Positions 1,288 through 62,017 of a DNA stretch of 64,000 nt are shown in pieces (within the stretch, counting starts at the first letter, position 1; each line of letters opens with the position of its first letter). Below the pieces are notes generated by a model. It searched no databases, was not told where the DNA came from, and saw only the letters and a program-made list of their open reading frames with translations. Source of the DNA: Bdellovibrionales bacterium (lineage in GTDB: Bacteria > Bdellovibrionota > Bdellovibrionia > Bdellovibrionales > UBA1609); the NCBI GenBank assembly GCA_965261545.1, contig CBDHDF010000004.1, forward strand, positions 1 to 64,000, written 5' to 3'. Made by a program: the position numbers and the translations under genes.

Positions 1288-1593
1288 TTGAATCGTCCTT
1301 TAAAACATCACGAACTATAACCTTTGAAATGGATAAGATATCTTTTCCATATTTGTCTACTCTATTTTTTCCTATACCATCAATTTTAACTAAATCTGAT
1401 AGCGTTTGAGGTCGCCTTTTTACTATGTCAGCAATCTGCTGGTTTGTTAAAACTACATAAGGCTGTACAATTGCGCGTATTGCCCGCACTGGTTGCACCC
1501 ATTACCCTCACTTTCCCTATTTCAATGCGTCATTGATGATTTTCCTTCCCATTTCTGGGGAAAATTTTAGTTAATTTGTAATCCTATTTCTTC

Positions 1594-4898: not shown

Positions 4899-5539
4899 AC
4901 TCTCGGAACCCCACCGTAATATTCAAACATCAGAACGTGAGCGTGAAGAAAATCTTCACTGGATTCGCTCAAAGAGCCATAAGCAAAAATACGCTGAGAG
5001 AAACATAGATTTGAGCAAAATATATGGGCCTTATGAATATTAAAGTCTTCATCGATCCACTCTGGCTGAAACCCTGCGTAATCAACCTCAACTTGGTGGC
5101 CTGGCTGAAAATCACGCAAGGTAATAATCCTTTTGCCAGCTTTTGGAAATTGCTTATGAAACTCCCTCGTAAACTGGGGGTAGCTAATGACCTTCAGAAA
5201 TTTTTCCTCCCAAACGTCACTTAAACAATGCCTATCCTCAATCTCCTTCTCAATAATCTTCCAATCTATACCGTAAGACCAAGGGGGAATTTCTCTTTGG
5301 GTCTTCCAATCCTTGGGGTCTGTTAAAAGACCACGTCTTATCTTTCTAAGAGTCTTGGTGCAGCATTTCATGCGGCGACTGATTTCTCGGTCGGGAATAT
5401 TTGCCTTTATTAATGATTTTATTTTTGTGTAACGCTCATGATCCATCTTTGTTCTCATTTCGACCTCCTTGGTTAAAGATTGGAGGTCTTTATAGAACAT
5501 CAATGACGCTATGCTAAGGGGAATCAGTCATGCCAATCA

Positions 5540-5657
5540 GTGCGGGCAATGCCATGCAACTGGTGCGGGCAATGCCATGCAACTGTGAGGGTAATGCCAT
5601 GCAACTGGTGAGGGTAATGTCATGCAATCGGTGAGGGCAATGCCATGCAATTTTACA
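5540..5657. repeat. Five tandem 22-23-bp subterminal repeats of IS21 #1
   Basis: Unit GTG(C/A)GGG(C/T)AATGCCATGCAA(CTG) with no spacers; degenerate inverted copies at 1464-1510. Confidence 0.88.
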
Positions 5658-6140
5658 TAAGGAGGAATACCATCTTTCTTACAACGCTGCGATCTCCAAT
5701 CTCTTAATAAATTAAACAATCCCATCTCGTGTTCAGATAAAGACTTCTTCCAGCTTCTTTCTTTTTGGATGGACCTACTTTTAACTACATCCTGAGCAAC
5801 CGGGCAATACTTAAGTACAAAAACTAAATATGGTGTTTCATTCTTCACAAATAGATAATCACGAGAAGAAACAAGCTCCTTATCTTTTAAAAACTCTCTC
5901 ACTTCATCATCATCAAAACCACCAAGAGCCGAATTAAAAGACAAGGATATGACTTTGATTAACATACACCTCTCACTAAAATAAAACTAAATACGAAGAG
6001 AGGGTTGGCTTTCGCCACGCTCCGCGGGCTCAGCCTTTCCCTCCCTTCTTGCCTTGTGCCCGCCCATGCCTGACGGCTGGCATGCTGAGGCTCGCTTCGC
6101 TTCGCCTGGAAAAGGGTAAAAGTGTAAAAGGGCAAAGGGG

Positions 6141-7955
6141 TTACATAGGCGTCCTCACAAGGCGGAAACCGATAAAGTCCCAGCGATTACCAGGCCGAAC
6201 GTTGAAACGATTGGAAGAGCGCAGGCCGCGAGCGTAGTTGTACCAACCGCCACCACGTATAACACGGTTAGAGCCATTTTTCGGACCTCTAGGGTCTGTG
6301 ACAGGACCAAAATCATACCAAGGTTTAGAATACTCCTCCTCATACCAATCTTCGACCCACTCCCACACATTTCCATGAACATCATAAAGCCCTAGGGGAT
6401 TGGGGCTCAGCAATCCCACGGACCTTGATTGTCGGCTTTGTTTGCCAGATCGAGAGTTCCCACTATACCAACCATAGTTTTGAAGTTCTGAAGGATTGTC
6501 ACCAAAGGAGTAGGCTGTTTTTGTGCCTGCTTTTGCACCACCCCTGGCTGCAAATTCCCACTCCGCTTCCGTAGGCAAACGGTATTCATATTTGTCACCG
6601 TGGGACTCTCTCGCCCTGCGATTGTACTCATTTATAAATTCTTGGACGTCCTCCCAAGACACTCTCTCCACAGGATGATCGGCGCACATTGAAACTCCAT
6701 CTTGTTCCATATAGCTTTCTTGGCAATGCTCTTCTTCTTGGAATCTTGAAGGATTTGTCCCCATCACAACAAACCACTGCCATTGAGTCACCTCTGTGGT
6801 GCTTATTTCAAAGGGCTTAGAAATTGTTACTTTATGAGGGGTCTCATCCGAATCTCGATCTTTTTCAGTCTTAGGACTCCCCATAGTGAAAGAACCTGCG
6901 GACACGGGGACAAAACCATATTGAGACAAGCTTGGTCTCACATAGGCTCTCAAAACACTGTATTCAATGCCCGTTTTGTCTTTTGAATAAAGACGTGTGT
7001 TCATCCGAGGGCTTCCTATCACTTCATCCACCAAGCTTTCAATGACTCCGTTAAGAACTCTCACGGCAGAAGCAAACTCCTGCTTGCTGTCAATTTTTGA
7101 GTCAAGTTCTTCAAGGTTTTTTTCTTAAGGCAGCTAATTGTTTTATAAGAGATCCTGCATTTTCTTCTCCATAGGCGTCTATGAACTTTTCTATGCCTGA
7201 GACCTTTTCCTTGGCCTCATCTCTTTGTCGAACGAGGTCATGGACGGAAGCTTCCATGCCCTCTTTATAGGCTTTGACCTGCCGAGCCTCTTTGGGACCT
7301 AGGGTAGGAAGCTTATTAACTCTTAGCACGGATTGAAGGCGACGCTTAAAGTCACTGACAAGGACTTTTCTTATAAGTGCACCATCGGGCCGCTGGCAAT
7401 CACTCACCTCATTTATAACAGAACCCACTTCACACTCTTGGATCACAATCTTATCTTCTCCTTGGTGGCTTTTTTCTTTATAAAATAAAATCACATCACC
7501 ATCGGGGCCTACAAGATTCACAGAAGAGGGCCTTCTTTTGTCACCCCTCTTATCACTATCACCTCTTTTCGTACCATGAGGACGAGATCCACGAGGTCCG
7601 CTGTGGGAACCATGGCCGCCATGGGAACTATAATGACCTTGGAAGCCAGATCCATGGGGTAACTGGAGTCGGCCTCCTGATTTTAGGGTGATTCGCCTCA
7701 TCTTTTCTTCATGCTTACGAACCACAGCCTTGTAGGAAGCGGTACGGTCTTCTGGTGTAGAAGAGTCCCCTGATGGATTTGTATGATTCTGGTTCTGATT
7801 CAGACCTTTGTCTTGACTCTCTCGGCTCTCTTTGCCCTCTTGGCTCACTCGGCTCTCTTTGCTCAAAAAGGCACATGAGGGCAAAACCATCAATAGTGAC
7901 AATAACCACAAAAGCAATAAAGGTCTCAGGACCTTATGGGTTTCATTCCTTTCAT
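6141..7955 (-). pseudogene. DGR target gene, left copy: lipoprotein with C-terminal FGE-sulfatase/CLec domain; frameshifts near 7928 and 7120
   Basis: FTMGS, HPVERVSW, RLPTEAEWE, GLYDVHGNVWEW and GFRL motifs; LPSC lipobox; two 1-bp indels relative to the right copy. Confidence 0.9.
6154..6278 (-). repeat. DGR variable repeat VR1
   Basis: 125-bp ungapped match to TR 60446-60570 with 13 mismatches, all at TR adenines. Confidence 0.96.
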
Positions 7956-8173
7956 TTTTTGATCTCCTTTCATTTTTTGCTTTGGCGGCACTTTACTTAA
8001 CTCTTGCCCTCTTTAGCCATTGACTTGAAGCCATAAACTCACCCACTATCTGAACCAACCTTAGTCTCATTGACTCAAGCCTACCTACTTGACTTTACTT
8101 ATGTCACTAAGTCATTGTCGACACAAAATAGTACAAACTTGAATTTCTAGACTTTGCGAGGACTCCACTGACA

Positions 8174-30206: not shown

Positions 30207-31649
30207 ATGTTGGAACAAAACTTCTGGCAAAAGATTAAAGACAGTTTAAAGAAAAAAAATGCACACAATAATCTTTTTCATATGTGGTTTGATCCAACCC
30301 AATTGATTGAAATCAAAAAAGAACTCAATAGCCATCGATTTCGTCTAGGGGTTCCCTCAGAACTCCACAAGTATTGGATATCCGAGAATCTTCTCAACCT
30401 AATTTCTGAAGAAATATCAATGATTTACAAAAAACCCTTTTATTTAGAACTCATCGTCACAAACAGTCTAAAAGAAAGCTCCAAGGATCCTTCTTTACCC
30501 TTATCCACAAAAAATTATCAGCAAAATCAACTCAATCTATCCTATGTGCAAGCTCATACAGGAGCTAAAGTTCTTGCGAATCCTAATAGGTTTCAGCAAT
30601 TTACTCAAGATAAAACCCAAAGAGGATCTCTCAACCCCGACTACACCTTTTCTACGTTTGTAGTGGGCCGCAACAACGAATTTGCTCATGCTGGTTCTTT
30701 TAGTATTGCGGAACAACCTGGAAAGGATAGCTACAATCCCTTATTTATCTATGGACCTACGGGAATGGGTAAAACCCATCTTCTTCACGCCGTTGGAAAT
30801 CACATCTCCACCAGTCAGCCCCACCTTCGAGTCAATTACGCTTCAGCCGAAAAATTTATTAACGAATGTATTTCCAGTATTCGTCGAAGAGAAATGGACA
30901 AATTTCGCCTCAAGTACAGGGAAAGATCAGACATTCTTTTAATGGATGACGTTCAGGTTTTGAGACACGGTGAAGCAGTGCAAGAAGAGTTTTTTCACAC
31001 CCTCAACCATTTTTTTGACAAGAAGCAGCAAGTTGTCATTGCCAGCGATCGAATGCCAAAAGACATTCGTGGTCTCGAAGACCGCATTCGAACTCGCCTT
31101 GAATGGGGTCTTATTGCAGATATCCAAATGCCAGACATTGAAACAAGGGTTGCCATTTTAAAATATAAAGCCGAACTTATGAAATTAAATATTCCCCCAG
31201 AAGCTATCTCCTACATAGGTCGAATATCTAAACGATCCATACGAGAGCTAGAAGGCAATCTCAACAAAGTTCGAATTTATAGTGAGCTTCAAGGTCTACA
31301 CTTAAACCTTGAATTGGCCAAAAAAGTTCTGGCGACTCATGATGACGCAACACATATAACTATTTCGGAAATACAAAAAATTTGTGCTCGCCATTTTGAA
31401 ATCAGTGTTTCAGACCTAAAGTCGAAATCTCGAACAAAACCCCTCGTCGTTGCAAGGCAGTCGGCCATGTTTATGATAAAAAAACATCTCGACAAATCAC
31501 TTGTTGAAATTGGACGTGCTTTTGGAAAGGATCACACCACAGTTATTAATTCATTGCGTCGAATTGAAAGTCAACTTGGTAAAGATTCCGATTTAAAGAA
31601 AGATATTGATGAGATAGAAATGCGAATCCACAATCTCACAGGGGTGTGA
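30207..31649 (+). CDS. dnaA: Replication initiator DnaA
   Basis: YNPLFIYGPTGMGKTHL, QEEFFHTLN, KDHTTV. Confidence 0.98.
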   Translation: MLEQNFWQKIKDSLKKKNAHNNLFHMWFDPTQLIEIKKELNSHRFRLGVPSELHKYWISENLLNLISEEISMIYKKPFYLELIVTNSLKESSKDPSLPLSTKNYQQNQLNLSYVQAHTGAKVLANPNRFQQFTQDKTQRGSLNPDYTFSTFVVGRNNEFAHAGSFSIAEQPGKDSYNPLFIYGPTGMGKTHLLHAVGNHISTSQPHLRVNYASAEKFINECISSIRRREMDKFRLKYRERSDILLMDDVQVLRHGEAVQEEFFHTLNHFFDKKQQVVIASDRMPKDIRGLEDRIRTRLEWGLIADIQMPDIETRVAILKYKAELMKLNIPPEAISYIGRISKRSIRELEGNLNKVRIYSELQGLHLNLELAKKVLATHDDATHITISEIQKICARHFEISVSDLKSKSRTKPLVVARQSAMFMIKKHLDKSLVEIGRAFGKDHTTVINSLRRIESQLGKDSDLKKDIDEIEMRIHNLTGV

Positions 31650-31860
31650 ATAAACAATGTGGACAAGTATGTGGAAAGATGTGTGTCATCGTTGTGGAAA
31701 CGAACTTATCCACAACCACCGACTGGAACAAAGCCCTTTTAATAAGAAGGTTTTCCACAAGAATTTGTTATTAATTTCAATAATTTAAGTAGATTTAAGA
31801 GCTATCCACGGCCCTACTACTACAACTATTTTATATATATACAATTAACTATTAGTTTAA
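31645..31860. other. Chromosomal replication origin oriC
   Basis: DnaA-box-like 9-mers at 31645, 31658, 31670, 31693, 31706 (perfect TTATCCACA), 31751 and 31802, then GCCC, TACTACTACAACTA trios and an AT-rich tract. The + strand shifts from C-rich to G-rich around here (by eye). Confidence 0.92.
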
Positions 31861-31872
31861 GGGGTTATATCC

Positions 31873-33000
31873 ATGAAAATAAAGGCTGAAAGAAATGACC
31901 TATTTTCTCTTCTCAATCGTTGCCAGAGTATCGTGGAAAAAAAAACCACAATGCCAGCCCTCATCAACATCTTACTTAAATCTAAAAGAAATACTTTAAA
32001 GCTTTTTGCAACCAACCTTGAAGTAAGCTTTGTGGATGAGATTATTGCTGAAATTGATGAGCCAGGAGATGTTGCCGTTAACTCAAAAAGCCTTTTTAAT
32101 ATCATCAAGGAATTGCCAGAGGGTCCAGTTCAATTAATAAAACAAGAAAACAACTGGCTCAAAGTTTCTCAAAGTAAGTCCAATTTTAAGATATCTGGCA
32201 TTCACCCTAGTGAGTATCCAGACTTTCCTGAAATTAAAGCAAAGCATTTTTCCAGTATTAAGGCTTCTGCTCTTTCAGAGATGATCGATAAAACCATATT
32301 TAGTGTCTCTAATGACGAGACGCGCTATCATCTTAATGGTGTTTATTTTGAAAGGGTGAGTTCAGACGAATTTAAGATGGTTTCCACAGATGGTCATAGG
32401 CTAAGCCTTATTAATAAATCCTTGGGTCTTGTATCAAATGGTCTTTCATGGTTGTCTGTAAAAGAAGGAGTTATTATTCCACGGAAAGGGCTTAATGAGA
32501 TTAAAAAGTTGAGTGAATCAAATGATGATGAGAGTATCTTTCATGTAACTATTGATGGCTCTCAACTTGTTCTTTGCCATGAGAAGGTTGTTTTGATGAT
32601 TCGTCTCATTGAAGGACGATTTCCCAATTATGAACAACTTATTCCACAGAGTTTAAAAGAGCGTATTTTATTTAACAGAGAGGAATTACTTGCTGCCTTG
32701 AGAAGGGTATTTATTTTATGTGATCAAAAGTCAAAAAATGTTATTTTTGATTTGTCTGAGGGGTGTATTAAGATATCTTCAAGGGATACCACTCTTGGAA
32801 GTGCCAAAGAAGAAATAGAAATTGATTACCAAGGAGAAGACTTCAAGGTTGGGTTTAACATCAAATATTTCTTAGATGTCTTGACAACTATGAATGTGGA
32901 TGAAGTGGATATTGAATTGCAGGATAACTCATCACCTGGTCTACTAAGACCCCATGGGGATAAAAGCTATACCTGTGTTATTATGCCTATGCGTGTTTGA
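31873..33000 (+). CDS. dnaN: DNA polymerase III beta clamp
   Basis: DETRYHLNGV, STDGHRL, VIMPMRV. Confidence 0.97.
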   Translation: MKIKAERNDLFSLLNRCQSIVEKKTTMPALINILLKSKRNTLKLFATNLEVSFVDEIIAEIDEPGDVAVNSKSLFNIIKELPEGPVQLIKQENNWLKVSQSKSNFKISGIHPSEYPDFPEIKAKHFSSIKASALSEMIDKTIFSVSNDETRYHLNGVYFERVSSDEFKMVSTDGHRLSLINKSLGLVSNGLSWLSVKEGVIIPRKGLNEIKKLSESNDDESIFHVTIDGSQLVLCHEKVVLMIRLIEGRFPNYEQLIPQSLKERILFNREELLAALRRVFILCDQKSKNVIFDLSEGCIKISSRDTTLGSAKEEIEIDYQGEDFKVGFNIKYFLDVLTTMNVDEVDIELQDNSSPGLLRPHGDKSYTCVIMPMRV

Positions 33001-42939: not shown

Positions 42940-43740
42940 TTAAAAATAACCTCCATCATCGTCATCATCATCATCATCGTCGTCGTCATCTAGATCTGAA
43001 GAATCATCCATGTCATCAAAAATATCTGTGGTTTCAAAGTCATCGCTAGGTTGAAGAGATTCGTCATCGAAATCTTCTTTGATATTATCAAAAAAATTAT
43101 CCTTATCATTTGCATCAATAGAATCAGACCCTTCATTATCATCCTCTAAGTGAGAAGTTTTTTCAGAGATATCTTCTGATGAATCTGTGGAATCGAGATC
43201 CTCCTCCTCTTGGTCATTTTGAGTCGTAAATGTTGTAAAGATGCTTCCTAAATTCCTTGAAGTGGTAGAATTGACGATTTCTTCAAGAGATGGGACTTCT
43301 GGCTTGGCTGATTTCTTTCGCCCTCTTTTTGTGACTTTTTTAGCTACCTTTTTACTAGCTTTTTTCTTGGTGACTTTTTTAGCTACCTTTTTACTAGCTT
43401 TTTTCTTGGTGGCTTTTTTAGCTACCTTTTTACTAGCTTTTTTCTTGGTGGCTTTTTTAGCTACCTTTTTACTAGCTTTTTTCTTGGTGGCTTTTTTAGC
43501 TACCTTTTTACTAGCTTTTTTCTTGGTGGCTTTTTTAGCTACCTTTTTACTAGCTTTTTTCTTGGTGGCTTTTTTAGCTACCTTTTTACTAGCTTTTTTC
43601 TTGGTGACTTTTTTAGCTACCTTTTTACTAGCTTTTTTCTTGGTGACTTTTTTAGCTACCTTTTTACTAGCTTTTTTTTGTCCTTTTTTTGCAAGAGTTT
43701 TTCGTTTGCTAATTTTTTTCTTTGTTTTTTTGCGTCCCAT
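42940..43740 (-). CDS. Histone H1-like lysine-rich repeat protein with acidic tail
   Basis: 9 x ASKKVAKK(A/V)TKKK, D/E-rich C-terminus, GGAGGG RBS. Confidence 0.75.
   Translation of the reverse strand: MGRKKTKKKISKRKTLAKKGQKKASKKVAKKVTKKKASKKVAKKVTKKKASKKVAKKATKKKASKKVAKKATKKKASKKVAKKATKKKASKKVAKKATKKKASKKVAKKATKKKASKKVAKKVTKKKASKKVAKKVTKRGRKKSAKPEVPSLEEIVNSTTSRNLGSIFTTFTTQNDQEEEDLDSTDSSEDISEKTSHLEDDNEGSDSIDANDKDNFFDNIKEDFDDESLQPSDDFETTDIFDDMDDSSDLDDDDDDDDDDDDGGYF
43326..43678. repeat. 39-bp coding tandem repeat, about 9 copies
   Basis: Unit TTGGTG(G/A)CTTTTTTAGCTACCTTTTTACTAGCTTTTTTC. Confidence 0.95.
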
Positions 43741-49781: not shown

Positions 49782-50997
49782 TGTCTTATCTCCTGCCAGA
49801 CTTTTTGCTGGGTCTAATGAGGTGATATTTAGTCCATCTTTGGTCTATTTTTGCGAGTAAGGGTCACTTGGAGCTTGGTGAGTTCGCAATTTTTTCTTTG
49901 TTCTGTTCTTCTTTCAGTGGTCATATTACCCTCACGGCAGGCGAGAAGCTTCTCATAAGTAAAGTGAATCATAGAAATAAGCTACAGGCAAAGTTAATTC
50001 GCAGGGTCGAGTTGAATAGGAGGAAAATAGACTCTCTCGCAAAGTCTAGGAATTCAAGTTTGTACTATTTTGTGTCGACAATGACTCAGTGACATAAGTA
50101 AAGTCAAGTAGGTAGGCTTGAGTCCAGAAATTCCCGCCGAGCTTGAAAAAACATTGAAATTCCTCCAAATCTCAGTGTGAGAATTGCACTGCATCGAATA
50201 AGGTAAACCTCCCCGTCTTCGCCATTTAGAGGCGAATGTCCAGACTTTAGTTTAGGGCAAATACGTTAAACTCTTTGGGGCACTTTGAGAAAAATGGCTG
50301 CTCATGATGTGTCGAAAACATCTGAGGCAGCAATAGGCTTAATCCCATAAGCCATTATGGCGAGGAGTTCCTGCCAATTTTTAAAGTATAGGGTATGGAA
50401 ATACCCCCTCATATGATCCCATAGATAAGATGTTAGCTGACAATTAAAATGCCCCACCGTCGCCAATGAAAAGTGGCCACTTTTCAGAGGAGGACCTATG
50501 GTGATTTTTGGCATTGTCAACCGAGACGCATATAATCAATTGATATTACTCATAAAAAGGCTCCGAGCTGATAAGAACTCCTTTTGGGTTCTTGTCGACC
50601 TGGAAAGGGGCTCCGTGTTGGAGAGTCCTTCCATGACAGCCTATTCAGGTTCCATATTTCTCATTTGTAGACTGTTTCTGGATTTCAATGAGGTTAAATA
50701 TATAGTCAAGAAAAGCCTGTTTAGGCTGTGCCCATTTTCTAAAGTATTTAAATTCCACAAGATTCCAACATTTGCCTCAATTTTCATGGAATTTCTTTTT
50801 GAAGACAGGCTTCCCTTAAAGCCGTCGCCAATTAAAATGTCCCACTTTCAATATGGAGGTTGTCGCCAATGAAAAGTGACCAATCTTCAGGGAGTGTTCA
50901 AATACTAGACAATGAAGTCTCTTCTTCTGATATAGATACTAAGCTCACAGAGTCCCTCCCTTTTGCAACTCAAAAGGTTAGCAATGAGGAGGATCTT

Positions 50998-52464
50998 ATG
51001 ATTAGTCAATACACTTTCGGCCGCATTCGTGACCTGAGTCACAGTGGTAAAAATAAGACAGAAATATCTCGTGAATTAGGGATCAATCGTAAGACGGTGC
51101 GCAAGTACTGTAAGTCCAACACCCCACCGAAGTACAAGGCGAGGTCCAAAAGAACTCGCCCAGATCCCCTTAATGGATATATGGATCGGGTGAAGTACTT
51201 TTTGAAGTTGAACCCAAGTAACACCGCCCGTGAAATATATGAGCTATTAGTTGAGGAGGGTTATCGTGGGAGTGAGAGAACGGTTCAGAGAAGAGTTTGT
51301 GAGATTCTTGGTTCTCGCCCCAAGGAGCGTTTTTTCAGCCAAAGATATGATCCTGGAGAACAGGCTCAGTTTGATTTTAAGGAGAAGGTTGCTTTACCAT
51401 TTGCCGATGGTGTTCAGATCGTTCATCTCCATTTTGGAACATTGCCTTGTAGTGGCACCTGTTGGGTTCGTGCCTACCCCTTTCTTGTCTATGAGTGTTT
51501 CATCGATGGGGTGCATGCTTTTTTTGAAAAGATAGGTGGGATGAGTGCGAACATCCGTATTGATAATTTATCTCCCTGTGTGAAGAAAGTTCTTAAAGGA
51601 AATCAGCGAATTTACACCCAATCTTTTGATCGAGCCATCCAATACTATGGATTTAAGGTTCTTCCCTGCCGCGCAGGGAAGGGCTCTGACAAGGGAGATG
51701 TGGAGCGTGATATTCGAACCTTCAGTTCTCGGATAAAAAATATTGTTAGAAACAAAGGAATTGTTTTTAAAGACTGGGATCATTTGAATCAGTTTTTAGA
51801 GTCTTATATGGATCAGCATCAGAGTGACTCCACCAAATCTCGCTTTGAGGAGGAGGCCAAAGTTCTTAAGCCTTTGCCTCCACGAGATGAAGATATTCTC
51901 TGTAAGGTGAATATTTGTCAAAGTAATGGTTATGGGACTTTGAGAATAGGTAAAACCACATATTCCATACCTGATGAGGTGATCCAATCTCCCTGTAAAA
52001 CCGTACAGGGTCCCTATCATGTCACGATCTATCGTGCAGGAGGGAAGCAAGAAATTGTCGCTCGCCATCAAAGAAAACCTGATGGGGAGCATAGTCTTCT
52101 TCTTGAACATATCCTTCCTTCTTTAGTTCGTAAGCCGCAAGCCATGGTAAGATGGGCTCACCGATCCATTCTTTTTCCAACAAATGTGTTTGAAAATTTT
52201 TATCAATACCTCAAGCAACAAGATTCAAGCCGTGCCGAGCATGAATATTTAAGAGTTATCAACTTGATTCAGCATGTGAGTTGGCAGGACTTATCTACAG
52301 CCATGGAGCTTCAATTAGAAAGTCGTGAGATTTTCGACTTTAAATCCATAAAAGATTTGCTCTTAGGAAATCCCACCAAAATTAATTTGAATGACCAACA
52401 AAAACCACTTCAACCTAGATTGTCTCAATATGACAGTCTTGTTCCAAACATAGGAGGTTCTTAA
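50998..52464 (+). CDS. istA: IstA transposase
   Basis: HTH EISRELGINRKTVRKY, PGEQAQFDF, DKGDVER; GAGGAGG RBS before 50998. Confidence 0.93.
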   Translation: MISQYTFGRIRDLSHSGKNKTEISRELGINRKTVRKYCKSNTPPKYKARSKRTRPDPLNGYMDRVKYFLKLNPSNTAREIYELLVEEGYRGSERTVQRRVCEILGSRPKERFFSQRYDPGEQAQFDFKEKVALPFADGVQIVHLHFGTLPCSGTCWVRAYPFLVYECFIDGVHAFFEKIGGMSANIRIDNLSPCVKKVLKGNQRIYTQSFDRAIQYYGFKVLPCRAGKGSDKGDVERDIRTFSSRIKNIVRNKGIVFKDWDHLNQFLESYMDQHQSDSTKSRFEEEAKVLKPLPPRDEDILCKVNICQSNGYGTLRIGKTTYSIPDEVIQSPCKTVQGPYHVTIYRAGGKQEIVARHQRKPDGEHSLLLEHILPSLVRKPQAMVRWAHRSILFPTNVFENFYQYLKQQDSSRAEHEYLRVINLIQHVSWQDLSTAMELQLESREIFDFKSIKDLLLGNPTKINLNDQQKPLQPRLSQYDSLVPNIGGS

Positions 52465-53246
52465 TGAATCACGAAGAACTTATAGGTTCTCTTAAAAAAC
52501 TCCGACTTCCAGCGATGGCGGATGAATATGTTGCAACGGCTAGAGTTGCCGAAAAAACAAAAAAGACGTATGAACAGTATTTAGGTATACTCGTTCAAAA
52601 TGAGCTTGCTGACAAGCATTCCCAGAGAGTGAAAAGATTGCTTAAGGGGGCCAAGCTTCCTCAACTTAAATCACTCCAAACTTATAACTTCCAGAAAAGA
52701 ACGGGAGTGACAGCTCAGCAAATTAATTGGATGGCAGAGGGAGAGTGGGTCAGAAAAGCCTGTAATGTTGTGTTTTACGGAAGCTTTGGAATGGGGAAAA
52801 GTCATTTGGCCATGTCCCTAGTTCGTTCACTCTGTGAACAAGGCTATCGATGTTTATGGGTCACCACTCATGAACTTATTGAAACAATGCGTGAAAGCAA
52901 GAAAGAACTCTCATTGAATGCTCTTTTTAAGAAATTAGACCGTTTTGATCTTATTGCTTGTGATGAACTTGGCTATACAGCTTCCTGCACAGAGGGGGCA
53001 GATCTTTTCTTTCAATTCATATCTCAGCGATATGAAAGGAAAAGTCTCATGATCACTACAAACTTAACATACTCTGAATGGGATAAGGTGTTTCTTAACC
53101 CTATTACCACCGCTGCTGCTGTTGATCGAATCATTCACAACTGTGAAACCCTCAACATTGAAGGAAAAGAAAGTTGGAGAACCGAATCGGCAAAAGCCAA
53201 GTCTAAACAGAGCAAAGAGGAAAGTTCAACCAAAGAAGTTCATTAG
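52464..53246 (+). CDS. istB: IstB ATPase
   Basis: GSFGMGKSH, DELGY, TTNL, DRIIH. Confidence 0.94.
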   Translation: MNHEELIGSLKKLRLPAMADEYVATARVAEKTKKTYEQYLGILVQNELADKHSQRVKRLLKGAKLPQLKSLQTYNFQKRTGVTAQQINWMAEGEWVRKACNVVFYGSFGMGKSHLAMSLVRSLCEQGYRCLWVTTHELIETMRESKKELSLNALFKKLDRFDLIACDELGYTASCTEGADLFFQFISQRYERKSLMITTNLTYSEWDKVFLNPITTAAAVDRIIHNCETLNIEGKESWRTESAKAKSKQSKEESSTKEVH

Positions 53247-55828
53247 AGATCCCCACTTTTGGGGAAGGAACTCGCCAGTTATCCACAAAATTTATCCACA
53301 GCAGCACTGCGTTGCTAGACATCGGGGTCACAGCCGCAGTGTCGCCATGGATAAATTTATGGATAACTGGCTTTTACCGTACTATTTGCTCGTCACTCTC
53401 GCGGAGCTTTAGACATTAGCTGCGCCAAGGAATCCTGAAAAATACTCCATTTACCTCTGCCATAGGGCTGAAGGATGCATTTGGGGTCATGCCAAAAGTG
53501 GTGGGCAGAAAATCATTCCTCAGAATCTTGTGGCATAGTCCGAGTTAAATGATGAGCAAAATAAAGACACTTGACTAAACTCTGAACGAAGAATAACTAA
53601 ATCAGTACATCATCAACTGGCCGTTTTTCATTGGCGACGGCTTCTAAAAATGGCCAATTTTAATTGGCGCCTAACATAAGATAGTCTCCTCTCTTTTTCT
53701 ACCGCCTTTTGAAACAATTTACAGGCCAAATGTTGAAGTTGGTCCACTAAAAATACCAGCATCATAATCACGGCTAAATTGTTACACAAATTTTGCTTGC
53801 CGTGGCCAAAATTGTGCTCAAAGTTGTAACCCAAATTCTTTAACGTATTAAATGTTTCATTTTCTATCTTCCAGCGTGCTCTTCCCCCCCTCATTATTTG
53901 CATTATGTTGTCTTCGTTGATCTCAATGTCAGTCACCCAGCTAAAGTGCTGAACCTTACCGTTTGCTTTCGTTTCTTTGTATTCAATAAAATTCACTCGA
54001 CAATCAGGATTTGAATCATTGAGTGAAACATCATTTATGAATCGAAATTCATGTGTCACTCCATTCTCTACCACGGTGAAGTGAGAAACTGTTCCTAAGC
54101 TATCTGCTCCATTTACAAACTCAAATAAAACTTTGTGGTCCCCCATCTTACAGCCTAAAATATAACTTAATTTTAATTCGTTAAGAAGAGTGATGTGAGG
54201 AGCATTGGAAGCCAATCCATCCTCAATAACAATCACTGGAAGGTGAGGGTGTTCCCTGCGAAAATCTTCAAGGAGTCGTTTGGCTGCATTACGCTCACAA
54301 TCATTTTTGCTCGATCCATCTGTGTTTGAAATGGGCTCTGGAGCAATAGGTATAACCTGTTTCTTATCGGGGTGAACAATCACTCCTGCTAACATTTGAT
54401 GATAGTAGGTCTTCGTCTCATCACGATGATTCTTTATACAACAATTCTCACAATGAATAGTCGAGGAGCTAAAGGCACCTGTTCCATCAATGCTGAGAAG
54501 ATATTTTCCACCCAAATATGGGTAACCCTCCAAAACCTTCCCTCTTTGAGCTACGGTAAACAAAGATTTAAAAAAATTTTGAAACTCACGGGTTGGAACA
54601 GGATCTAAAATCTCTCGCATAGCCGTATCACTAGGAATTTGGCCTATTTGAAACAAATGGTGTAGGTTGTTTTTTGCCACTGGGTCATGGACACGATCAC
54701 AAAACTGAAGCATGGATGGATCTTTCAAGGCAAACATTGCCACAGATGACATAATGGCATCGCTCAGAGGAATCCTATGGGGACGCTGCGATCTTATATC
54801 TGGAACTGCAAGAGATTTACTGTGTAGCAGGGAATACATTCCTGAAGCGGATAGACCTTTTCTAAAATGTTGATGCGACATGACGAACCCTCCTTGGTCT
54901 GATGTGCAACAACAAATATTCAAACAGATACTTAGGCAAAAGTCTACGAACTCTTTTTGAGGCGAATCTTTTGGAAGCCACTACTGTGGCCTAAACTATT
55001 TTTCGACGGGAATTGCTGGCTTGAGTCAATGAGACTAAGGTTGATTCAGATAGTGGGTGAGTTTATGGCTTCAAGTCAATGGCTAAAGAGGGCAAGAGTT
55101 AAGTAAAGTGCCGCCAAAGCAAAAAATGAAAGGAGATCAAAAAATGAAAGGAATGAAACCCATGAGGTCCATGAGACCTTTATTGCTTTTGTGGTTATTG
55201 TCACTGTTGATGGTTCTGCCTTCATGTGCCTTTTTGAGCAAAGAGAGTCGAATGAACAAAGAGGGCAAAGTGAGCCGAGAGAGTCAAGACAAAGGTCTGA
55301 ATCAGAATCAGAATCATACAAATCCATCAGGGGACTCTGCACCTCTATCTACATTACATCATCTACACCAGAAGACCGTACCGCTTCCTACAAGGCTGTG
55401 GTTCGTTCGTAAGCATGAAGAAAAGATGAGGCGAATCACCCTAAAATCAGGAGGCCGACTCCAGTTACCCCATGGATCTGGCTTCCAAGGTCATTATAGT
55501 TCCCATGGCGGCCATGGTTCCCACAGTGGACCTCGTGGATCTCGTTCTCATGGTACGAAAAGAGGTGATAATGATAAGGGTGACAAAAGAAGGCCCTCTT
55601 CTGTGAATCTTGTAGGCCCCGATGGTGATGTGATTTTATTTTATAAAGAAAAAAGCCAACAAGGTGAAGATAAGATTGTGATCCAAGAGTGTGAAGTGGG
55701 TTCTGTTATAGATGAGGTGAGTGATTGCCAGCGGCCCCATGGTGCACTTATAAGAATAATCCCTGTGAGTGACTTTAAGCGTCGCCTTCAATCCGTGCTA
55801 AGAGTTGATGAGCTTCCTACCCTAGGCC

Positions 55829-57239
55829 CAATGCCGTTTCCTTAAGAAAAATCTCTTGAAATCATTAGATAAATCGACAAGAATAAGACTTGTTTTATTT
55901 TACACCCAACCCTCAACCAAGGAGTAAGTCACATGCAATCCAATATTGATCTCGAAAGCCCCCAAATGACGAGTTCGCGTCACAGATGACCATTTTATTC
56001 TACCAAAACTTGATTCTTCCTTCAAGCCAGAGCACCTTGTCGATCCAGAAAAACAAAAAAGGAATCGAAAATTTAATCCTCAAATTTTCTTTTTTACCAT
56101 TATCTATCTTATTTCAGGAACAAATTACGAAGGCTACCAAATCGCTCTTAAGACGGTATGGACTCATTTTGGTGACCTGCTTCTCATGCCAGTCAAAAGC
56201 AGTCTCAGCAAGATACGTCAAAGTATTTCTTACCTATTTTTCAAAGATATCTTTGAATCTCTGATTACAGACTACGAACCATTGAGAAAAACGTTTCATG
56301 GTTTTTATATCTATGCCATAGATGGCGACCAATTAGCACTTCCTCGCTCTAAAGATCTTTTAAAGGAGGGTTATTGTGGGTACCCTTGCCCAAATGAGAT
56401 GGAAACTCATTTCTTACGTATGTATCTATCTCATGCTTATGACGTTTTATCGGGTGTGACAAAGAATCTTTGCTATTCTCCCGCTCTCAACGAAATCGCC
56501 AATGCTATTCAAATGATAGGTAGTTTTGAGAGTAATAGCATAACTCTCTACGATAGGCTTTATTTATCTACAGAGATTATTAAGGCCCATGCTCAAGCCA
56601 GTAACTTCTTTATTGCGCGTTGTAAGCGAGGCTCTACTTTTATCCCCATCGTAAATTTATTTAATGGCCCAGGTTGGTATTCACAAATGGTTATTGAGGG
56701 GGTGGTCATTCATCTCTATAAGTATAAAAACCCAAAGACTGGGGAGTTCTCTGTTTTGGCCACTAATCTTCCGCATGGCTCCTTGGACAAGAAGGATATG
56801 GTTGCTCTTTACTCTCGTCGTTGGGAAATAGAAACGACATTTCGTGATTTTACATCGACAATGAAAATGGAGCAGTGGCACTCAACAAGCCTTAATGGAA
56901 TATTGCAAGAGCTGTATTCTTATTTTTGGCTCTTCAATTATACAAAGATTCAAATGAGCATAAATGAGGATGAAGACAGTGTGAATCAGTTGGTGAAAAA
57001 TGACTACAAAAAACCTAACTTTAAACTGATTCTTGATTTCATAATGGATAGCATCCCTCTTTTTGTTGCGGGGCTCTATCAGAAATTTAGGAAGCAGATA
57101 AAGTTGCTGATGAAGATTTCAATGGAGAAGAGGAGGCACTTCAAAAGAAGCTATGAAAGGTCTATCAAAAGGGCTGGGAGTTCTTTTAAAAGAAATAGCT
57201 TAACGCAGAGGGGTGTGGTGGCTTAAGGAAACGGCATTG
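55829..57239 (+). mobile_element. IS4-family element #2 (1411 bp)
   Basis: Perfect 18-bp IRs CAATGCCGTTTCCTTAAG. 10-bp TSD ACCCTAGGCC at 55819-55828 and 57240-57249. Confidence 0.94.
56186..57226 (+). CDS. IS4-family transposase (frame open from 55970; true start unclear)
   Basis: AIDGD, YDRLY, YSRRWEIETTFRD. Confidence 0.88.
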   Translation: MPVKSSLSKIRQSISYLFFKDIFESLITDYEPLRKTFHGFYIYAIDGDQLALPRSKDLLKEGYCGYPCPNEMETHFLRMYLSHAYDVLSGVTKNLCYSPALNEIANAIQMIGSFESNSITLYDRLYLSTEIIKAHAQASNFFIARCKRGSTFIPIVNLFNGPGWYSQMVIEGVVIHLYKYKNPKTGEFSVLATNLPHGSLDKKDMVALYSRRWEIETTFRDFTSTMKMEQWHSTSLNGILQELYSYFWLFNYTKIQMSINEDEDSVNQLVKNDYKKPNFKLILDFIMDSIPLFVAGLYQKFRKQIKLLMKISMEKRRHFKRSYERSIKRAGSSFKRNSLTQRGVVA

Positions 57240-58256
57240 ACCCTAGGCCCCAAAGAGGCTCGGCAGGTCAAAGCCTATAAAGAGGGCGGGGAAGCTCCCC
57301 GTTTCCATGACCTCGTTCGACAAAGAGATGAGGCCCAGGAAAAGGTCTCAGGCATAGAAAAGTTCATAGACGCCTATGGAGAAGAAAATGCAGGATCTCT
57401 TATAAAAAAATTAGCTGCCTTAAGAAAAAACCTTGAAGAACTTGACTCAAAAATTGACAGCAGGCAGGAGTTCGCTTCTGCCGTGAGTGCTCTGAACGGA
57501 GTCATTGAGAGCTTAGTGGATGAAGTGATAGGAAGCCCTCGGATGAACACTCGTCTTTATTCAAAAGACAAAACAGGTATTGAATACAGTGTTTTGAGAG
57601 CCTATGTGAGACCAACATTGTCTCATGGTTTTGTCCCCGTGTCTGCAGGTTCTTTCATCATGGGGAGTCCTAATACTGAAAAAGGTCGAGATTCGGATGA
57701 GACCCCTCATGAAGTAACAATTTCTAAGCCCTTTGAAATAGGCACCACAGAGGTGACTCAATGGCAGTGGTTTGTTGTGATGGGGACAAATCCTTCAAAA
57801 TTCCAAGAAAAAGAGTATTGCCCAGAAAGTTATATGGAACAAGATGGAGTTTCAATGTGTGCCGATCATCCTGTGGAGAGAGTGTCTTGGGAGGACGTCC
57901 AAGAATTTATAAGGGAGTACAATCGTAGGGCAAAAGAGACCCACGGCAACGAATATGAATACCGTTTGCCTACGGAAGCGGAGTGGGAATTTGCAGCCAG
58001 GGGTGGTGCAAAAGCAGGCACAAAAACAGCCTATTCCTTTGGTGACAATCCTTCAGAACTTAAAAACTATGGTTGGCATCAGGGGAACTCTCGATCTCGA
58101 TTTGGCAAACAAAGCCGACAATCAAGGTCCGTGGGATTGCTGAGCCCCAATCCCCTAGGGCTTTATGATGTTCATGGAAATGTGTGGGAATGGGTCGAAG
58201 ACTGGTATAAGAGGAAATATCCTGAAGGTCCTGTCACAGACCCTAGAGGTCCGAAA

Positions 58257-58381
58257 AATGGCTCTTACCGTATTGTACGTGGTGGCGGTTGGAACGGCTA
58301 CGCTCGCTCCCTGCGCTCTTCCAATCGTGGCTACGATCGGCCTGGTAATCGCTGGAACGTTATCGGTTTCCGCCTTGTGAG
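58257..58381 (+). repeat. DGR variable repeat VR2
   Basis: 125-bp ungapped match to the TR with 14 mismatches, all at TR adenines. Confidence 0.97.
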
Positions 58382-58569
58382 GACGCCTATGTAACCCCTT
58401 TGCCCTTTTACACTTTTACCCTTTTCCAGGCGAAGCGAAGCGAGCCTCAGCGTGCCAGCCGTCAGGCTGGGCACAAGGCAAGAAGGAAGGAGAGGGAAAG
58501 GCTGAGCCCGCGGAGCGTGGCGAAAGCCAACCCTCTCTCCGTATTTAGTTTTATTTTAGTGAGAGGTGT

Positions 58570-59079
58570 ATGTTAATCAAAGTCATATCCTTGTCTTTTA
58601 ATTCGGCTCTTGGTGGTTTTGATGATGATGAAGTGAGAGAGTTTTTAAAAGATAAGGAGCTTGTTTCTTCTCGTGATTATCTATTTGTGAAGAATGAAAC
58701 ACCATATTTAGTTTTTGTACTTAAGTATTGCCCGGTTGCTCAGGATGTAGTTAAAAGTAGGTCCATCCAAAAAGAAAGAAGCTGGAAGAAGTCTTTATCT
58801 GAACACGAGATGGGATTGTTTAATTTATTAAGAGATTGGAGATCGCAGCGTTGTAAGAAAGATGGTATTCCTCCTTATGTAGTTTTAACAAACCAGCAGA
58901 TTGCTGACATAGTAAAAAGGCGACCTCAAACGCTATCAGATTTAGTTAAAATTGATGGTATAGGAAAAAATAGAGTAGACAAATATGGAAAAGATATCTT
59001 ATCCATTTCAAAGGTTATAGTTCGTGATGTTTTAAAGGACGATTCAAGTGAGTTATCAGAGCAAGAATGTTCTTCATAA
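58570..59079 (+). CDS. HRDC-domain DGR accessory protein
   Basis: LFNLLRDWR..GIPPYVVLTNQQI..RPQTLSDL..IDGIGKNRVDKYGKDIL is an HRDC signature. Confidence 0.9.
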   Translation: MLIKVISLSFNSALGGFDDDEVREFLKDKELVSSRDYLFVKNETPYLVFVLKYCPVAQDVVKSRSIQKERSWKKSLSEHEMGLFNLLRDWRSQRCKKDGIPPYVVLTNQQIADIVKRRPQTLSDLVKIDGIGKNRVDKYGKDILSISKVIVRDVLKDDSSELSEQECSS

Positions 59080-59425
59080 AAATAAAGAAGATTTAATTAT
59101 TTTTATAAAGTGGGTAGACTTTGTGAAGTGGTTATTTGTAGCGATTGATAAATTTCCTAAGAAAACTAGATTTACTTTTGTAGATCATCTTACAAATCTA
59201 TCATTACTTATTGTAGAAGATATGGTTGAAGCTCGTTATAATAAGAATAAAATATTCATTCTTAAAAGAATGAATATAAATCTTGAAAAATTGAGAATTT
59301 TATTGCGGATTTGTTTTGAACTCAAGATGATGTCACAAAAGTCCTATGAATACTCTTCTAGATCAATAAATGAGGTAGGAAAAATGATTGGTGGATGGAT
59401 GAAGCAGCAGGAGTCTCTTCTATGA
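59048..59425 (+). CDS. avd: DGR accessory variability determinant Avd
   Basis: 125-aa basic helical protein with KFPK..RF and EVGKMIGGW; ATGA-coupled to the RT. Confidence 0.9.
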   Translation: MSYQSKNVLHKNKEDLIIFIKWVDFVKWLFVAIDKFPKKTRFTFVDHLTNLSLLIVEDMVEARYNKNKIFILKRMNINLEKLRILLRICFELKMMSQKSYEYSSRSINEVGKMIGGWMKQQESLL

Positions 59426-60435
59426 AGAGAATTGGAAATATTTTTGAGGAATTAACAACCTTTGATAACCTTTTGTTAGCATCAAAAAAAGCTATGAGAA
59501 GGAAAAGAAATAAAAAACCAATATCAGAATTTTACTTTAATCTTGAGAATGAAATATTTGAAATACAAAATGAATTGATCCAAAAAACCTATCGTCCAGG
59601 CCCATATATACAATTTGAAATTAGAGAACATAAGCGAAGATTAATTTGTAGTTCGAATTTTAGAGATAGGGTGGTTCACCATTCTATTTGTAATTATTGC
59701 GATCCTGTGTTTGAAAAAAGATTTATATTTGATAGTTACGCTTGTCGCCCTGGTAAAGGAGCTCATTCTGCAGTTAGGAGATGTCAGAAATTTTCTAGAA
59801 AATTTAGGTATTTTCTGAAGTGCGATATAAAGAAATTCTTTCATAGTATAAATCATGACATTTTAAAAGAATTATTGAGAAAGAACTTTAAAGATGAAGA
59901 TTTTTTGAATCTATTGGATTTAATTATTGATAATAAGGTGCCTGGCAATTTGGATAGAATGGGTCTCCCCATAGGGATTCTCACAAGTCAGAATTTTGCT
60001 AATTTTTATTTAGATTATTTGGATCATTTTGTTAAAGAACATATCAGAATTCCGAGCTACCTACGTTATATGGATGATTTTATATCATTTTCAAATGATA
60101 AGTATGAACTAAATAAATATCATCAAAAAATAGAAGGATTTCTTGCAGAAACTCTGAATCTTAGCCTTAAAGAAAGAGTAACTAAGCTAGCTCCTGTGTC
60201 AGAGGGCATTCCCTTTCTTGGTTTTAATATTTATCCATCAATCGTTAGAATCAAGCGAGAAAATTTGGTGCGAATGAGAAATAAAATAAGGCGCAAAGAA
60301 GAAGAATATATTAAAGGGATCATTTCCGAGAGATCACTCGTTCAATCTGTTAATAGTGTGATTGGTCACGTTGCCCATGTTAATTCTAAGGAGGTGAGAA
60401 AAGATATTTTTACAAGTTCTTTAAAAATGGCGTGA
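59422..60435 (+). CDS. DGR reverse transcriptase, intact
   Basis: [32 protein letters not shown] (GxxxSQ), RYMDD, FLGF; compact (337 aa) with no maturase or endonuclease extension. Confidence 0.96.
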
Positions 60436-60445
60436 TGATCATTTT

Positions 60446-60570
60446 AATGGCTCTAACCGTATTATACGTGGTGGCAGTTGGAACAACAACGCTCGCAACC
60501 TGCGCTCTTCCAATCGTAACAACGATCGGCCTGATAATCGCTGGAACAATATCGGTTTCCGCCTTGTGAG
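60446..60570 (+). ncRNA. DGR template repeat (TR)
   Basis: AAC-rich copy of both VRs 10 bp after the RT stop; 12 AAY codons in the VR frame. Confidence 0.96.
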
Positions 60571-60697
60571 TACATAGCTGTGTATAAAGTAAGAGTGAAT
60601 TGCCAGGAAATGTCGTTTATGGACTGCATTTGTGTGCCTAGGCTATGTCCAGATCATCATCCTGCGCTGATATTGTGTATCAGACAAATAAATCTAT

Positions 60698-60745
60698 AGT
60701 CATTGCGCTGAGTAGGTTATTCTTGAAAATCGCAATGACTTTTTT
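60698..60745 (+). terminator. Probable intrinsic terminator of the DGR transcript
   Basis: AGTCATTGCG...CGCAATGACT followed by TTTTT; the loop is long. Confidence 0.6.
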
Positions 60746-60778: not shown

Positions 60779-62017
60779 GTGAGCCGTTGCACTGTTTTTA
60801 GGAAACTTCAATTAGATATGAGACATTTTGGACAAATTGGGATGGTTTTATTGATGGCTTTGCTGGCTGGAGGTATCATGCTGTGGAAACACCATGAGTT
60901 CAAAAGCAATACATCTTCACAAAGTAAAGATCAAGAAGTCGTGAAAGAAGGTGCCACAGCTTCAAAGACGACTCATCAAGAGAAAGTTCATGGAGCTGTG
61001 ACCATTGATATTCACATGTTAGAGGCTCGTCATGATGGAAAGAGGTGGGAGCTTTGGGCAGATCGTAGTGAACGATATAAGGGTGGCAAGGATTTTTATT
61101 TAGAGGGAATTCGAGTGAACTTCCCCTCGGATCAAACCTTTGCTTTTAAAGTGAAAGGAAATAAAGGGGTTATTAATTTGGGCACCATGGATATGAATAT
61201 TTATGGCAATGTTGTCGTTCGGTCGACAAATGGAGACACTTTTAAAACTCAAACTCTCTTTTATTCTTCAAAACTACGTCATTTGAAGGGTGAAACACCT
61301 GTTGAAATGCGATTCCAATACAGTCCAGAAAGAGGCTCTAAAGGACCCCTTCTTCTTGACAAGGATGTAAGTTTGGTGGGCTCAAAGATTTTGATTGATT
61401 TAGATCCATCGCAGACAGAAATCTACGGGAGCGTGGTCTTGAAGGGAACCCTTAAAAAAGAAGGAATATTTACCATAAGAAGTGAGAAAGTCATTTTTGA
61501 TAACAAATCGGCAGTGACCCAATTTTTAGGTGATGTGCAAATTCATGTAGGAACTATTAAAGTGTTAGCCCCCCAGGCTCAATTTCAATATAAGAAGGAG
61601 ACAGGCGCTATTGTAAACTTTGTTGTCAAAGGTGGAGTTAATATGGAGGGTGAGGTATCGGTAAAGAGTCAAAATTTGTCTCAGGGGTCAGAGTTAATGA
61701 AGAAGAATTCAACGAAGAAGAGTCCAACGCAAAGCTGGAGAGCTAGGACCAAAGAAGTTTTCATTGACTTGGAGAACGAAGTGTTTGTTTTAAAGGGAAG
61801 CCCCCGGGTTGTCCAAGGTGAAGGTGAGTTAAGGGGGGAGGAAATTATATTTCGTCGTGGGGGTGACGCTATTCAAATACGCAAAGTGCGAGCTAAAATT
61901 GACAAGGATTTTGGCAAAGACCTTGGCAAAGCCTTCGATAAAAGCCTTGGGAAGGGGGTTGGTAAGGAGCTTGGTGAGGACTCTGGTAAAGAGCCTAAAG
62001 AAACATCTGCACCATAA
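60779..62017 (+). CDS. LptC/LptA(OstA)-like LPS export protein
   Basis: N-terminal TM, WELWA, GNVVV..FKTQTLFY, LKGSPRVVQG..LRGEEI jellyroll patterns. Confidence 0.7.
   Translation: MSRCTVFRKLQLDMRHFGQIGMVLLMALLAGGIMLWKHHEFKSNTSSQSKDQEVVKEGATASKTTHQEKVHGAVTIDIHMLEARHDGKRWELWADRSERYKGGKDFYLEGIRVNFPSDQTFAFKVKGNKGVINLGTMDMNIYGNVVVRSTNGDTFKTQTLFYSSKLRHLKGETPVEMRFQYSPERGSKGPLLLDKDVSLVGSKILIDLDPSQTEIYGSVVLKGTLKKEGIFTIRSEKVIFDNKSAVTQFLGDVQIHVGTIKVLAPQAQFQYKKETGAIVNFVVKGGVNMEGEVSVKSQNLSQGSELMKKNSTKKSPTQSWRARTKEVFIDLENEVFVLKGSPRVVQGEGELRGEEIIFRRGGDAIQIRKVRAKIDKDFGKDLGKAFDKSLGKGVGKELGEDSGKEPKETSAP

Follow-up and report, generated by a model that had tools for sequence, protein, structure and literature searches.

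The question raised by the locus described here is what a diversity-generating retroelement (DGR) diversifies when the target gene beside it is broken. The analyzed window, i.e. the first 64,000 nucleotides of contig CBDHDF010000004.1 of a Bdellovibrionales bacterium (assembly GCA_965261545.1; G000 denotes the genome holding the window, and G243 and similar handles denote other genomes of the class), contains on one strand a target gene (T1) followed by HRDC, avd and reverse transcriptase (RT) genes and by a template repeat (TR) located 3' of the RT. A preliminary description regarded this focal cassette as a complete DGR; this holds for the machinery, which is intact, and fails for the cassette as a whole, because the local target gene is interrupted by an insertion sequence (IS) of the IS4 family. 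That element, as well as an inverted second cassette and four remote targets, had been overlooked. The locus is a genuine DGR of known layout, more complex and more damaged than at first reading. We consider it probable (roughly 0.62) that it is a chromosomal DGR of architecture C1, which serves dispersed lipoprotein genes with C-type lectin (CLec) domains and edits them in trans, the remote genes having originated from cassette duplication and IS-driven decay.

The variable repeat (VR) of T1 matches the TR over 125 bp without gaps, and all 14 mismatches fall on TR adenines (8 A>G, 5 A>T and 1 A>C). As the TR contains 32 adenines in 125 positions, the probability of this by chance is 3.8e-10, and the adenine specificity on which the preliminary description had staked its DGR assignment was borne out in full. 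The identity stops after 58381 (VR) and 60570 (TR). The last 21 nt are invariant and GC-rich and are followed by G in the VR and by T or C in the TR, an arrangement that recurs in relatives and corresponds to a predicted initiation of mutagenic homing (IMH)/IMH* pair. The TR is AAC-rich and encodes an Asn-rich frame, in which 18 variable codons allow ~7e17 possible protein variants. The assembly contains one TR and one spacer. Family scans agree with the proposed HRDC, Avd, RT and FGE-type CLec identities (Table 1).

The open reading frames (ORFs) starting at 55144 and 57213 are the halves of one gene, sharing a single 609-codon frame across the IS4 insertion. The element is bordered by a 10-bp target-site duplication (55819-55828 and 57240-57249), its transposase scores 120.8 bits with NF033592 (cut-off 115), and 79 full-length copies of this type (at least 95% identity) are present in the genome. 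The 5' half of T1 shares 92-95% identity with the corresponding region of five paralogs and has no Pfam or NCBIfam match. Its Cys28 lies in a non-canonical lipobox (L-P-S-C; homologs P0127-P0130 have L-S-S-C), and the signal-like N-terminus with its conserved Cys makes T1 a putative lipoprotein. The 3' half carries the VR at the C-terminus of its CLec-fold domain (PF03781, 175.7 bits; best solved relative Treponema denticola TvpA, 2Y3C, E 6e-27). A His-Xaa-Ser-like reading of the H/S/G-rich linker was dropped for want of a family match, and a contig joint skipping the IS was rejected as an IS-free T1 allele, as it probably derives from paralogs. Directly upstream of T1 (50457-55017) lie an IS21 element (istA/istB) and an unclassified transposase without family match; this transposon block replaces the 5' flank common to the other paralogs.

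The genome holds six paralogous targets of lipoprotein type (T1-T6) on four contigs, four of them remote from the window, and its six strong FGE-sulfatase matches are exactly these genes. Their bodies differ by 2-5%, and they lie in different flanks. T2 belongs to the second, inverted cassette, in which HRDC is split by an IS21-like element (5654/1462), avd (910-1287) is identical to the focal avd, and the RT, with five substitutions and one deleted nucleotide, is cut off by the contig start. T5 and T6 have in common a microhomology deletion of 163 nt that reaches into HRDC, as well as a foreign downstream flank of 276 nt, and both (L016:4983-5260 and L013:2300-2573) run into the start of what we take, from its N-terminus, to be a fumarase/aspartase-like gene. 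Several stages of decay are thus present side by side: early in the T2 cassette, with a 35-nt HRDC scar in T5/T6 and without a scar in T4. Four IS types make up 9.8% of the genome. The IS21-like element of the second cassette (window 1463-5653, minus strand) is itself interrupted by a divergent IS4-like element (~3500-4900). Two further fragments were found elsewhere in the genome: a degenerate VR-only remnant (G000:C10:751852-751970, minus strand; ~75% identical to the TR, with a 6-nt insertion) just past the stop codon of an unrelated gene, and a 5' target fragment (L018, G000:C5:14243-14572) cut by the same IS4 type, whose 1500-nt upstream flank is identical to that of T3.

Table 1 Features of the focal DGR, the second cassette and the dispersed targets (window coordinates where positions are given; contig names refer to G000).
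Feature	Position	Strand	Description
dnaA-dnaN region, likely oriC	30207-33000	+	dnaA 30207-31649; DnaA boxes 31706 and 31751, between dnaA and dnaN
T1, 5' half	55144-55828	+	basic n-region, hydrophobic stretch, Cys28, low-complexity linker, unnamed N-terminal domain
IS4-family element in T1	55829-57239	+	18-bp terminal inverted repeats; transposase 56186-57226
T1, 3' half	57250-58394	+	predicted helical hairpin, then FGE-sulfatase-type CLec domain
VR	58257-58381	+	C-terminus of T1; last 21 nt (58361-58381) invariant, leading into putative IMH
3' cis element after VR	58382-58569	+	putative IMH end, pyrimidine tract, GC-rich inverted repeats ~58452-58474 and 58490-58537
HRDC accessory gene	58570-59079	+	169 aa; PF00570, 74 bits
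avd	59048-59425	+	125 aa, isoelectric point 9.7; NF033474, 108.3 bits (cut-off 80)
DGR RT	59422-60435	+	337 aa, intact; PF00078; YMDD; LPIGxLTSQ
Stop-duplex upstream strand	60432-60440	+	cPRT-Stop-like, overlaps RT stop codon; pairs with 60652-60660
TR	60446-60570	+	sole TR in assembly
Structured spacer RNA	60571-60745	+	175 nt after TR, conserved
Spacer parts, first section			tetraloop stem 60608-60631; primer-like strand ~60632-60647; stop strand 60652-60660
Spacer parts, second section			hairpin 60667-60683; long terminal stem 60699-60739 with AGUAG/GAA internal loop; T run
T2	6141-8081	-	second, inverted cassette; two frameshifts; VR 6154-6278, 13/13 differences A-specific
Second-cassette machinery	1-5965	-	decaying; truncated by contig start
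T3	contig C2		606 aa, open; 3' element lost to IS21 end 13 nt after stop
T4	contig C7		57-nt deletion and +1/-1 shift in VR
T5	contig C7		2-nt deletion in VR
T6	contig C11		621 aa, sole fully canonical copy

The argument for trans editing comes from the VRs themselves. All 91 substitutions in the six VRs lie at TR adenines when an A-aware alignment is used, and 29 of the 32 adenines are changed at least once; a neutral alignment gives one non-A change, beside an indel in T3. At the rate seen in the gene bodies 13.6 non-A changes would be expected, or 6.6 from third positions alone (P 0.001), and each upstream 123-nt window contains 1-16 third-position changes. The absence of non-A changes next to diverged bodies implies that, once the bodies had diverged, every VR was overwritten with sequence from this TR or from one identical to it. 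The VRs all differ from one another (14-27 pairwise differences). T5 and T6, whose shared deletion and flank point to descent from a copy already without machinery, differ at 18 VR sites, and this divergence after the loss of machinery favours editing in trans. In the focal cassette RT, Avd, HRDC, TR and spacer are all intact, and G243, with 12 targets, shows the same pattern: its single TR has 13 VR-like matches, 12 of them largely A-specific, and the 11 targets whose frames were read fall into a lipoprotein family, the signal of which resembles that of the G000 targets. These 11 VRs contain ~1 non-A change, as against 25 expected. Public-run contigs match the RT-TR region with 0-2 differences. 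Indels in three of the six VRs suggest that targets may be broken by retrohoming itself.

Several observations weigh against this reading. The homogenisation test restricted to four-fold sites is weak (3.1 changes expected, P 0.047); the second cassette is truncated at the contig end, so that a second TR may exist; an IS lies ~125 nt upstream of the T1 start codon and may have removed the promoter; the x position of the RT motif is Ile only here (Asn in 114 of 120 homologs, Ser in four); and the public data are contigs from four runs of one sample, in which rare VR variants are dropped. The paralog bodies are mosaic, and gene conversion from the cis target could also move VRs. In G243 a stop-codon change in the TR occurs in the cis VR and in none of the 10 remote VRs, and 9 of the 10 remote copies have no 3' element, which fits frozen copies.

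The last points are the core of a serious though unlikely alternative, according to which only the cis target near oriC is edited efficiently, while duplication or gene conversion carries its variants to other loci, where they are frozen, often through loss of the 3' homing element. The mosaic bodies and the loss of the T3 3' element to an IS21 end 13 nt past the stop codon agree with it, and so does the orientation of the remote copies, which are not co-directional with replication (8/11 head-on in G243 by hand count, P ~0.11; T4 and T6 head-on by skew). Frozen VRs should, however, gain non-A changes, and there are none in the six VRs of G000 and far too few in those of G243; moreover, four of the five non-focal copies in G000 retain the 3' element.

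Less probable still is that a formerly working DGR was recently silenced by an IS burst and is now decaying. Four of the six targets are broken or altered in the lectin core (T1 by an IS, T2 and T5 by frameshifts, T4 by its 57-nt deletion and +1/-1 shift), and the abundance of the four IS types, the IS upstream of T1 and the private Ile of the RT would all be consistent with such a course. Against it stand the intact RT, Avd, HRDC and TR and all the spacer helices of the focal cassette. The sister RT and the Bordetella RT (bRT) have Ser at the motif position in question, which indicates that it tolerates change, and a further VR variant in another assembly (P0123) differs by amino-acid changes of which 9/9, judged by eye, are reachable from TR adenines.

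It is very doubtful that the extra copies are merged strains or long-read assembly errors, and that real cells have one or two targets. The position of the second cassette at a contig end, its 100% identical avd and a genome contamination of 3.7% would allow this, whereas the six copies, spread over four contigs, lie in different flanks and diverge by 2-5% in their bodies, and paralog-specific alleles, together with the 57-nt and 163-nt deletions, are also found in short-read contigs. In addition, 66 of 74 full IS4 copies have an intact ORF, so indel errors are too rare to account for the three frameshifts of the T2 cassette.

The RT retains residues matching R74 and I181 of bRT, which is also its best solved relative (8UB7, 166 bits), followed by a group II intron RT (88 bits). 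A quick tree of 36 rows, in which three mis-extracted non-RT proteins (L012, L019 and L020) were ignored and which included no reference DGR RT, grouped it with HRDC-DGR RTs in a clade of 12 rows (support 100), to which none of the eight group II-like RTs belongs. The chance that it is a group II intron or retron RT with an incidental repeat beside it, the grouping that the preliminary description had named as fatal, is negligible: its top NCBIfam RT match is the group II model TIGR04416, yet at 149 bits (cut-off 300), and the bRT match, the IGxLTSQ motif in place of PQGxxxSP, the tree, the adjacent Avd and the A-specific repeats rule it out.

If the remote genes are edited in trans, the process may be envisaged as follows. 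A transcript that begins at the RT stop codon and spans TR and spacer would fold around RT and Avd and then prime itself; copying, with errors at adenines, would continue until the duplex on the RT stop codon is reached, and the cDNA could home to any VR retaining the IMH. Since T1 is cut by an IS, the useful output must go to the remote paralogs, of which T6 would be the fully canonical recipient. The remote targets themselves would go back to copies of the entire cassette that later took up ISs and lost the machinery by deletion.

The RNA structure in this scheme is documented by covariation, and the copying chemistry is modelled on Bordetella. A preprint on the Bordetella ribonucleoprotein (RNP; bioRxiv 10.1101/2023.10.23.563531) predicts a tetraloop stem, a TR:spacer primer duplex and a long terminal stem, as well as an upstream:spacer stop duplex with a hairpin and adenines after it; all these elements have counterparts in the focal spacer, for which analogous roles may be proposed. 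In an RNAalifold alignment of six loci (unfitted) 19 of 45 pairs are changed on both sides, and in a model-fitted alignment of 15 loci 28 of 45, far above slid controls, although relatedness inflates the latter count. The model built from six loci gave 15 matches in 34 sources, six of which are the training rows. Of the individual elements, the stop duplex is the strongest: its 7/7 core pairs are kept in 15/15 loci with compensatory changes and are matched by none of 300 shuffles per locus, and its cognate partner ranks first in only 6/15 loci because many partners are alike. The primer duplex is weaker and beats shuffles (P<0.05) in 7/15 loci. The tetraloop is UACG in 7/15 loci and UAUG in the focal one. 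Single-strand folding of the spacer was no better than shuffles, so covariation is the sole support for its structure. Rfam at gathering thresholds gave nothing at the DGR, and a full-length RT-14 match to the spacer was rejected (23.5 bits against a threshold of 48.1, E 3.1; zero matches in five homologous loci). As the same preprint predicts stop duplexes in 207 of 278 Avd-bearing DGRs, the focal RNA confirms a conserved mechanism and does not add a new one. The 3' cis element is present at 93-99% identity in four of the five other targets, and its pyrimidine tract is conserved in relatives; its single-strand folding is likewise no better than shuffles (z -0.96), and its role in homing is putative. 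Promoter and terminator scans remained near chance level. Directly after the spacer (window 60779-62017, plus strand) lies an LptC-LptA fusion gene with short imperfect repeats at its end.

The proposed proximity to oriC was supported by dnaA and by the GC skew, which flips near 30 kb (negative to the left, positive to the right). Both cassettes lie ~25-27 kb (the focal one ~27 kb) from the likely oriC and point away from it, the location and orientation in which DGR editing is favoured in E. coli according to the available text of PMC12875486. The cis cassette is similarly placed (at most 80 kb from dnaA, pointing away) in four of seven genomes (G000, G243, G368 and G042) and lies far from it in G363, G220 and G043, a count that leaves out G129, G034 and G380, where placement is undecidable. 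The genes flanking cis cassettes differ among genomes, and proximity to oriC is a lead only, because the sample is small and related. Co-directionality of remote targets with replication was not supported in G000 and G243. The broader proposal, that Bdellovibrionales maintain one oriC-proximal, co-directional DGR as a variant factory beside a dispersed library of up to a dozen fixed surface lectin variants, forming an adaptive recognition repertoire, is speculative and on balance rather improbable. If it were true, a natural system would provide evidence that the rate of a DGR is tuned by its place on the chromosome, and it would be the first in this phylum to link a DGR to the recognition of prey or host.

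Avd scores above the cut-off in 17 of 390 genomes of the class, G000 included (~4%). HRDC adjoins Avd in 17 of the 29 loci examined, and in 11 the TR comes directly after the RT; most others are cut or of other DGR types. Within the 12-row HRDC clade the focal RT is sister to that of G243, which belongs to another family, and this hints at possible transfer within the order. The bacterial host was proposed to belong to Bdellovibrionota, and DnaA taxonomy agrees: among seven homologs naming a taxon, five are from Bdellovibrionales, one from Pseudobdellovibrionaceae and one from Calothrix. Likewise, four of six named RT loci are from Bdellovibrionales or Bacteriovoracia. In G243 (C2:546-549 kb; L046/L104/L105) the TR stop codon stands where Trp is otherwise conserved, and the cis target, having taken it over, ends prematurely at 475 aa; the cis VR of a Bacteriovoracia DGR (L020:4728-4857) has acquired a stop through A>T in an AAG codon of its TR. 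G363 (C1:1455-1468 kb; L075, L101, L103) has tandem partial targets upstream of the cassette and older degenerate VRs elsewhere, and its cassette borders xerC and a sigma-54 regulator, genes that lie ~10 kb from dnaA in the focal window. Further Avd-RT pairs in the class (L063-L074) have DGR-type RT motifs, no HRDC and no match to the focal TR. Targets of other relatives vary from 290 aa to 1100 aa and have unrelated N-termini; the N-terminal region of the focal target has 16 homologs only, all with FGE domains. In the target homologs P0131-P0134 and P0136 the lipoprotein-like signal is replaced by a Cys-less signal. For this region ESM Atlas gave no usable match, and AlphaFold models of T6 had pLDDT values too low for use (37 and 45).

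The system appears to be cellular, as the preliminary description held: no phage genes stand out among the window ORFs read by eye, and a search of viral contigs for RT relatives with six peptide patterns found none. The same description called it a diversifier of lipoprotein surface proteins; adenine-specific retrohoming in a cellular DGR is supported, and the terms lipoprotein and surface are predictions from sequence alone. A signal-like N-terminus with Cys, a predicted helical hairpin and a variable lectin tip make an anchored ligand-binding protein likely, and the variable domain is probably a cell-surface tip for contact with prey, host or phage. The genome also encodes 11 S74-domain proteins (750-880 aa) in tandem clusters (G000:C2:620-639 kb, C7:321-327 kb and 428-434 kb); S74-type prey-binding fibres with varied tips are described in B. 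bacteriovorus (PMC10769870, as far as its available text goes). No flagellin was found in the genome, which is 97% complete. Together with the S74 proteins and the IS load, this suggests an attached or host-associated life. Elsewhere in the window (42940-43740, minus strand) lies a gene for a histone H1-like protein with KKASKKVAKK repeats and an acidic tail.

The value of the locus lies in the questions of how remote DGR targets originate and whether they are edited in trans, since G000 shows an intact module, an early-decay duplicate, scarred targets and bare targets together, and G243 adds a dated marker in the TR change present in the cis VR only. It also represents a compact lineage that recurs across Bdellovibrionales and has a conserved RNA, through whose pairings the priming model from Bordetella can be probed directly by mutation in a system with RT-TR order. 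Should the targets prove to be lectins on the surface of a predatory lineage, they would bear on how such bacteria widen their prey range or change prey, for which B. bacteriovorus is reported to use varied fibre tips (PMC10769870).

A literature search, limited to the available texts, revealed no DGR reported in Bdellovibrionales or Bdellovibrionota and, for Bdellovibrio, a reference-list mention only. The supplement of Wu et al. (PMC5758913) contains no Bdellovibrio, Bacteriovorax or Oligoflex string, and in Roux et al. (PMC8144416) neither the main text nor 11 of the 13 supplements have a Bdellovibr string, although contig tables may carry such DGRs under other labels. New here are the host order, the N-terminal region of the target and the number of targets per TR. 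The closest known layout is architecture C1 of Wu et al. (TG-HRDC-AVD-RT-TR with a CLec1 target), for which the part of that work available to us gives four examples, listed in its Table S1 as Haliscomenobacter hydrossis, Ca. Cloacamonas acidaminovorans, a Prosthecochloris aestuarii plasmid and Marichromatium purpuratum. The focal cassette has this gene order on one strand and a CLec1 target, with the VR at the C-terminus of an FGE-sulfatase CLec domain and the TR just after the RT, and H. hydrossis, too, is listed with a remote target (one). In contrast, its host is a member of Bdellovibrionales, its local target is split by an IS, and its target N-terminal domain has few homologs; moreover, the focal genome has six targets and G243 twelve.

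The preliminary description had compared the locus with the T. denticola DGR (TvpA; PMC4891356, PMC5758913). The resemblance holds for the chromosomal location, HRDC, FGE-type CLec domain, predicted lipoproteins and many remote targets (eight in T. denticola), and does not extend to the gene order, which in Treponema is TG-TR-HRDC-RT with no Avd range listed in the available table of PMC5758913; here the TR follows the RT and avd is present. TvpA is also about half as long as the focal target and has no counterpart of its N-terminal region. With respect to genome dynamics, the best parallel is Thiohalocapsa PB-PSB1 (Dore et al., PMC10907252, according to its available text), a transposon-rich genome with duplicated loci, decayed machinery and targets matching a distant TR at all non-A sites, which were read as trans-edited. 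That system comprises nine loci, four RT classes, conflict-system targets and read-level proof of activity, whereas the focal genome has one RT lineage and one lipoprotein family and is known from assembled sequence. A cyanobacterial survey, in the part available, likewise suggests that diversification parts are removed once a variant has been selected. Finally, the RNP of the BPP-1 DGR, as described in the accessible account, shares with the focal system the RT residues R74 and I181, the SQ motif, the tetraloop stem, the TR:spacer and stop duplexes and the long terminal stem. The focal DGR differs in that the upstream strand of its stop duplex comes from the RT stop codon and not from the end of avd, and in that it is cellular, includes HRDC and has several targets.

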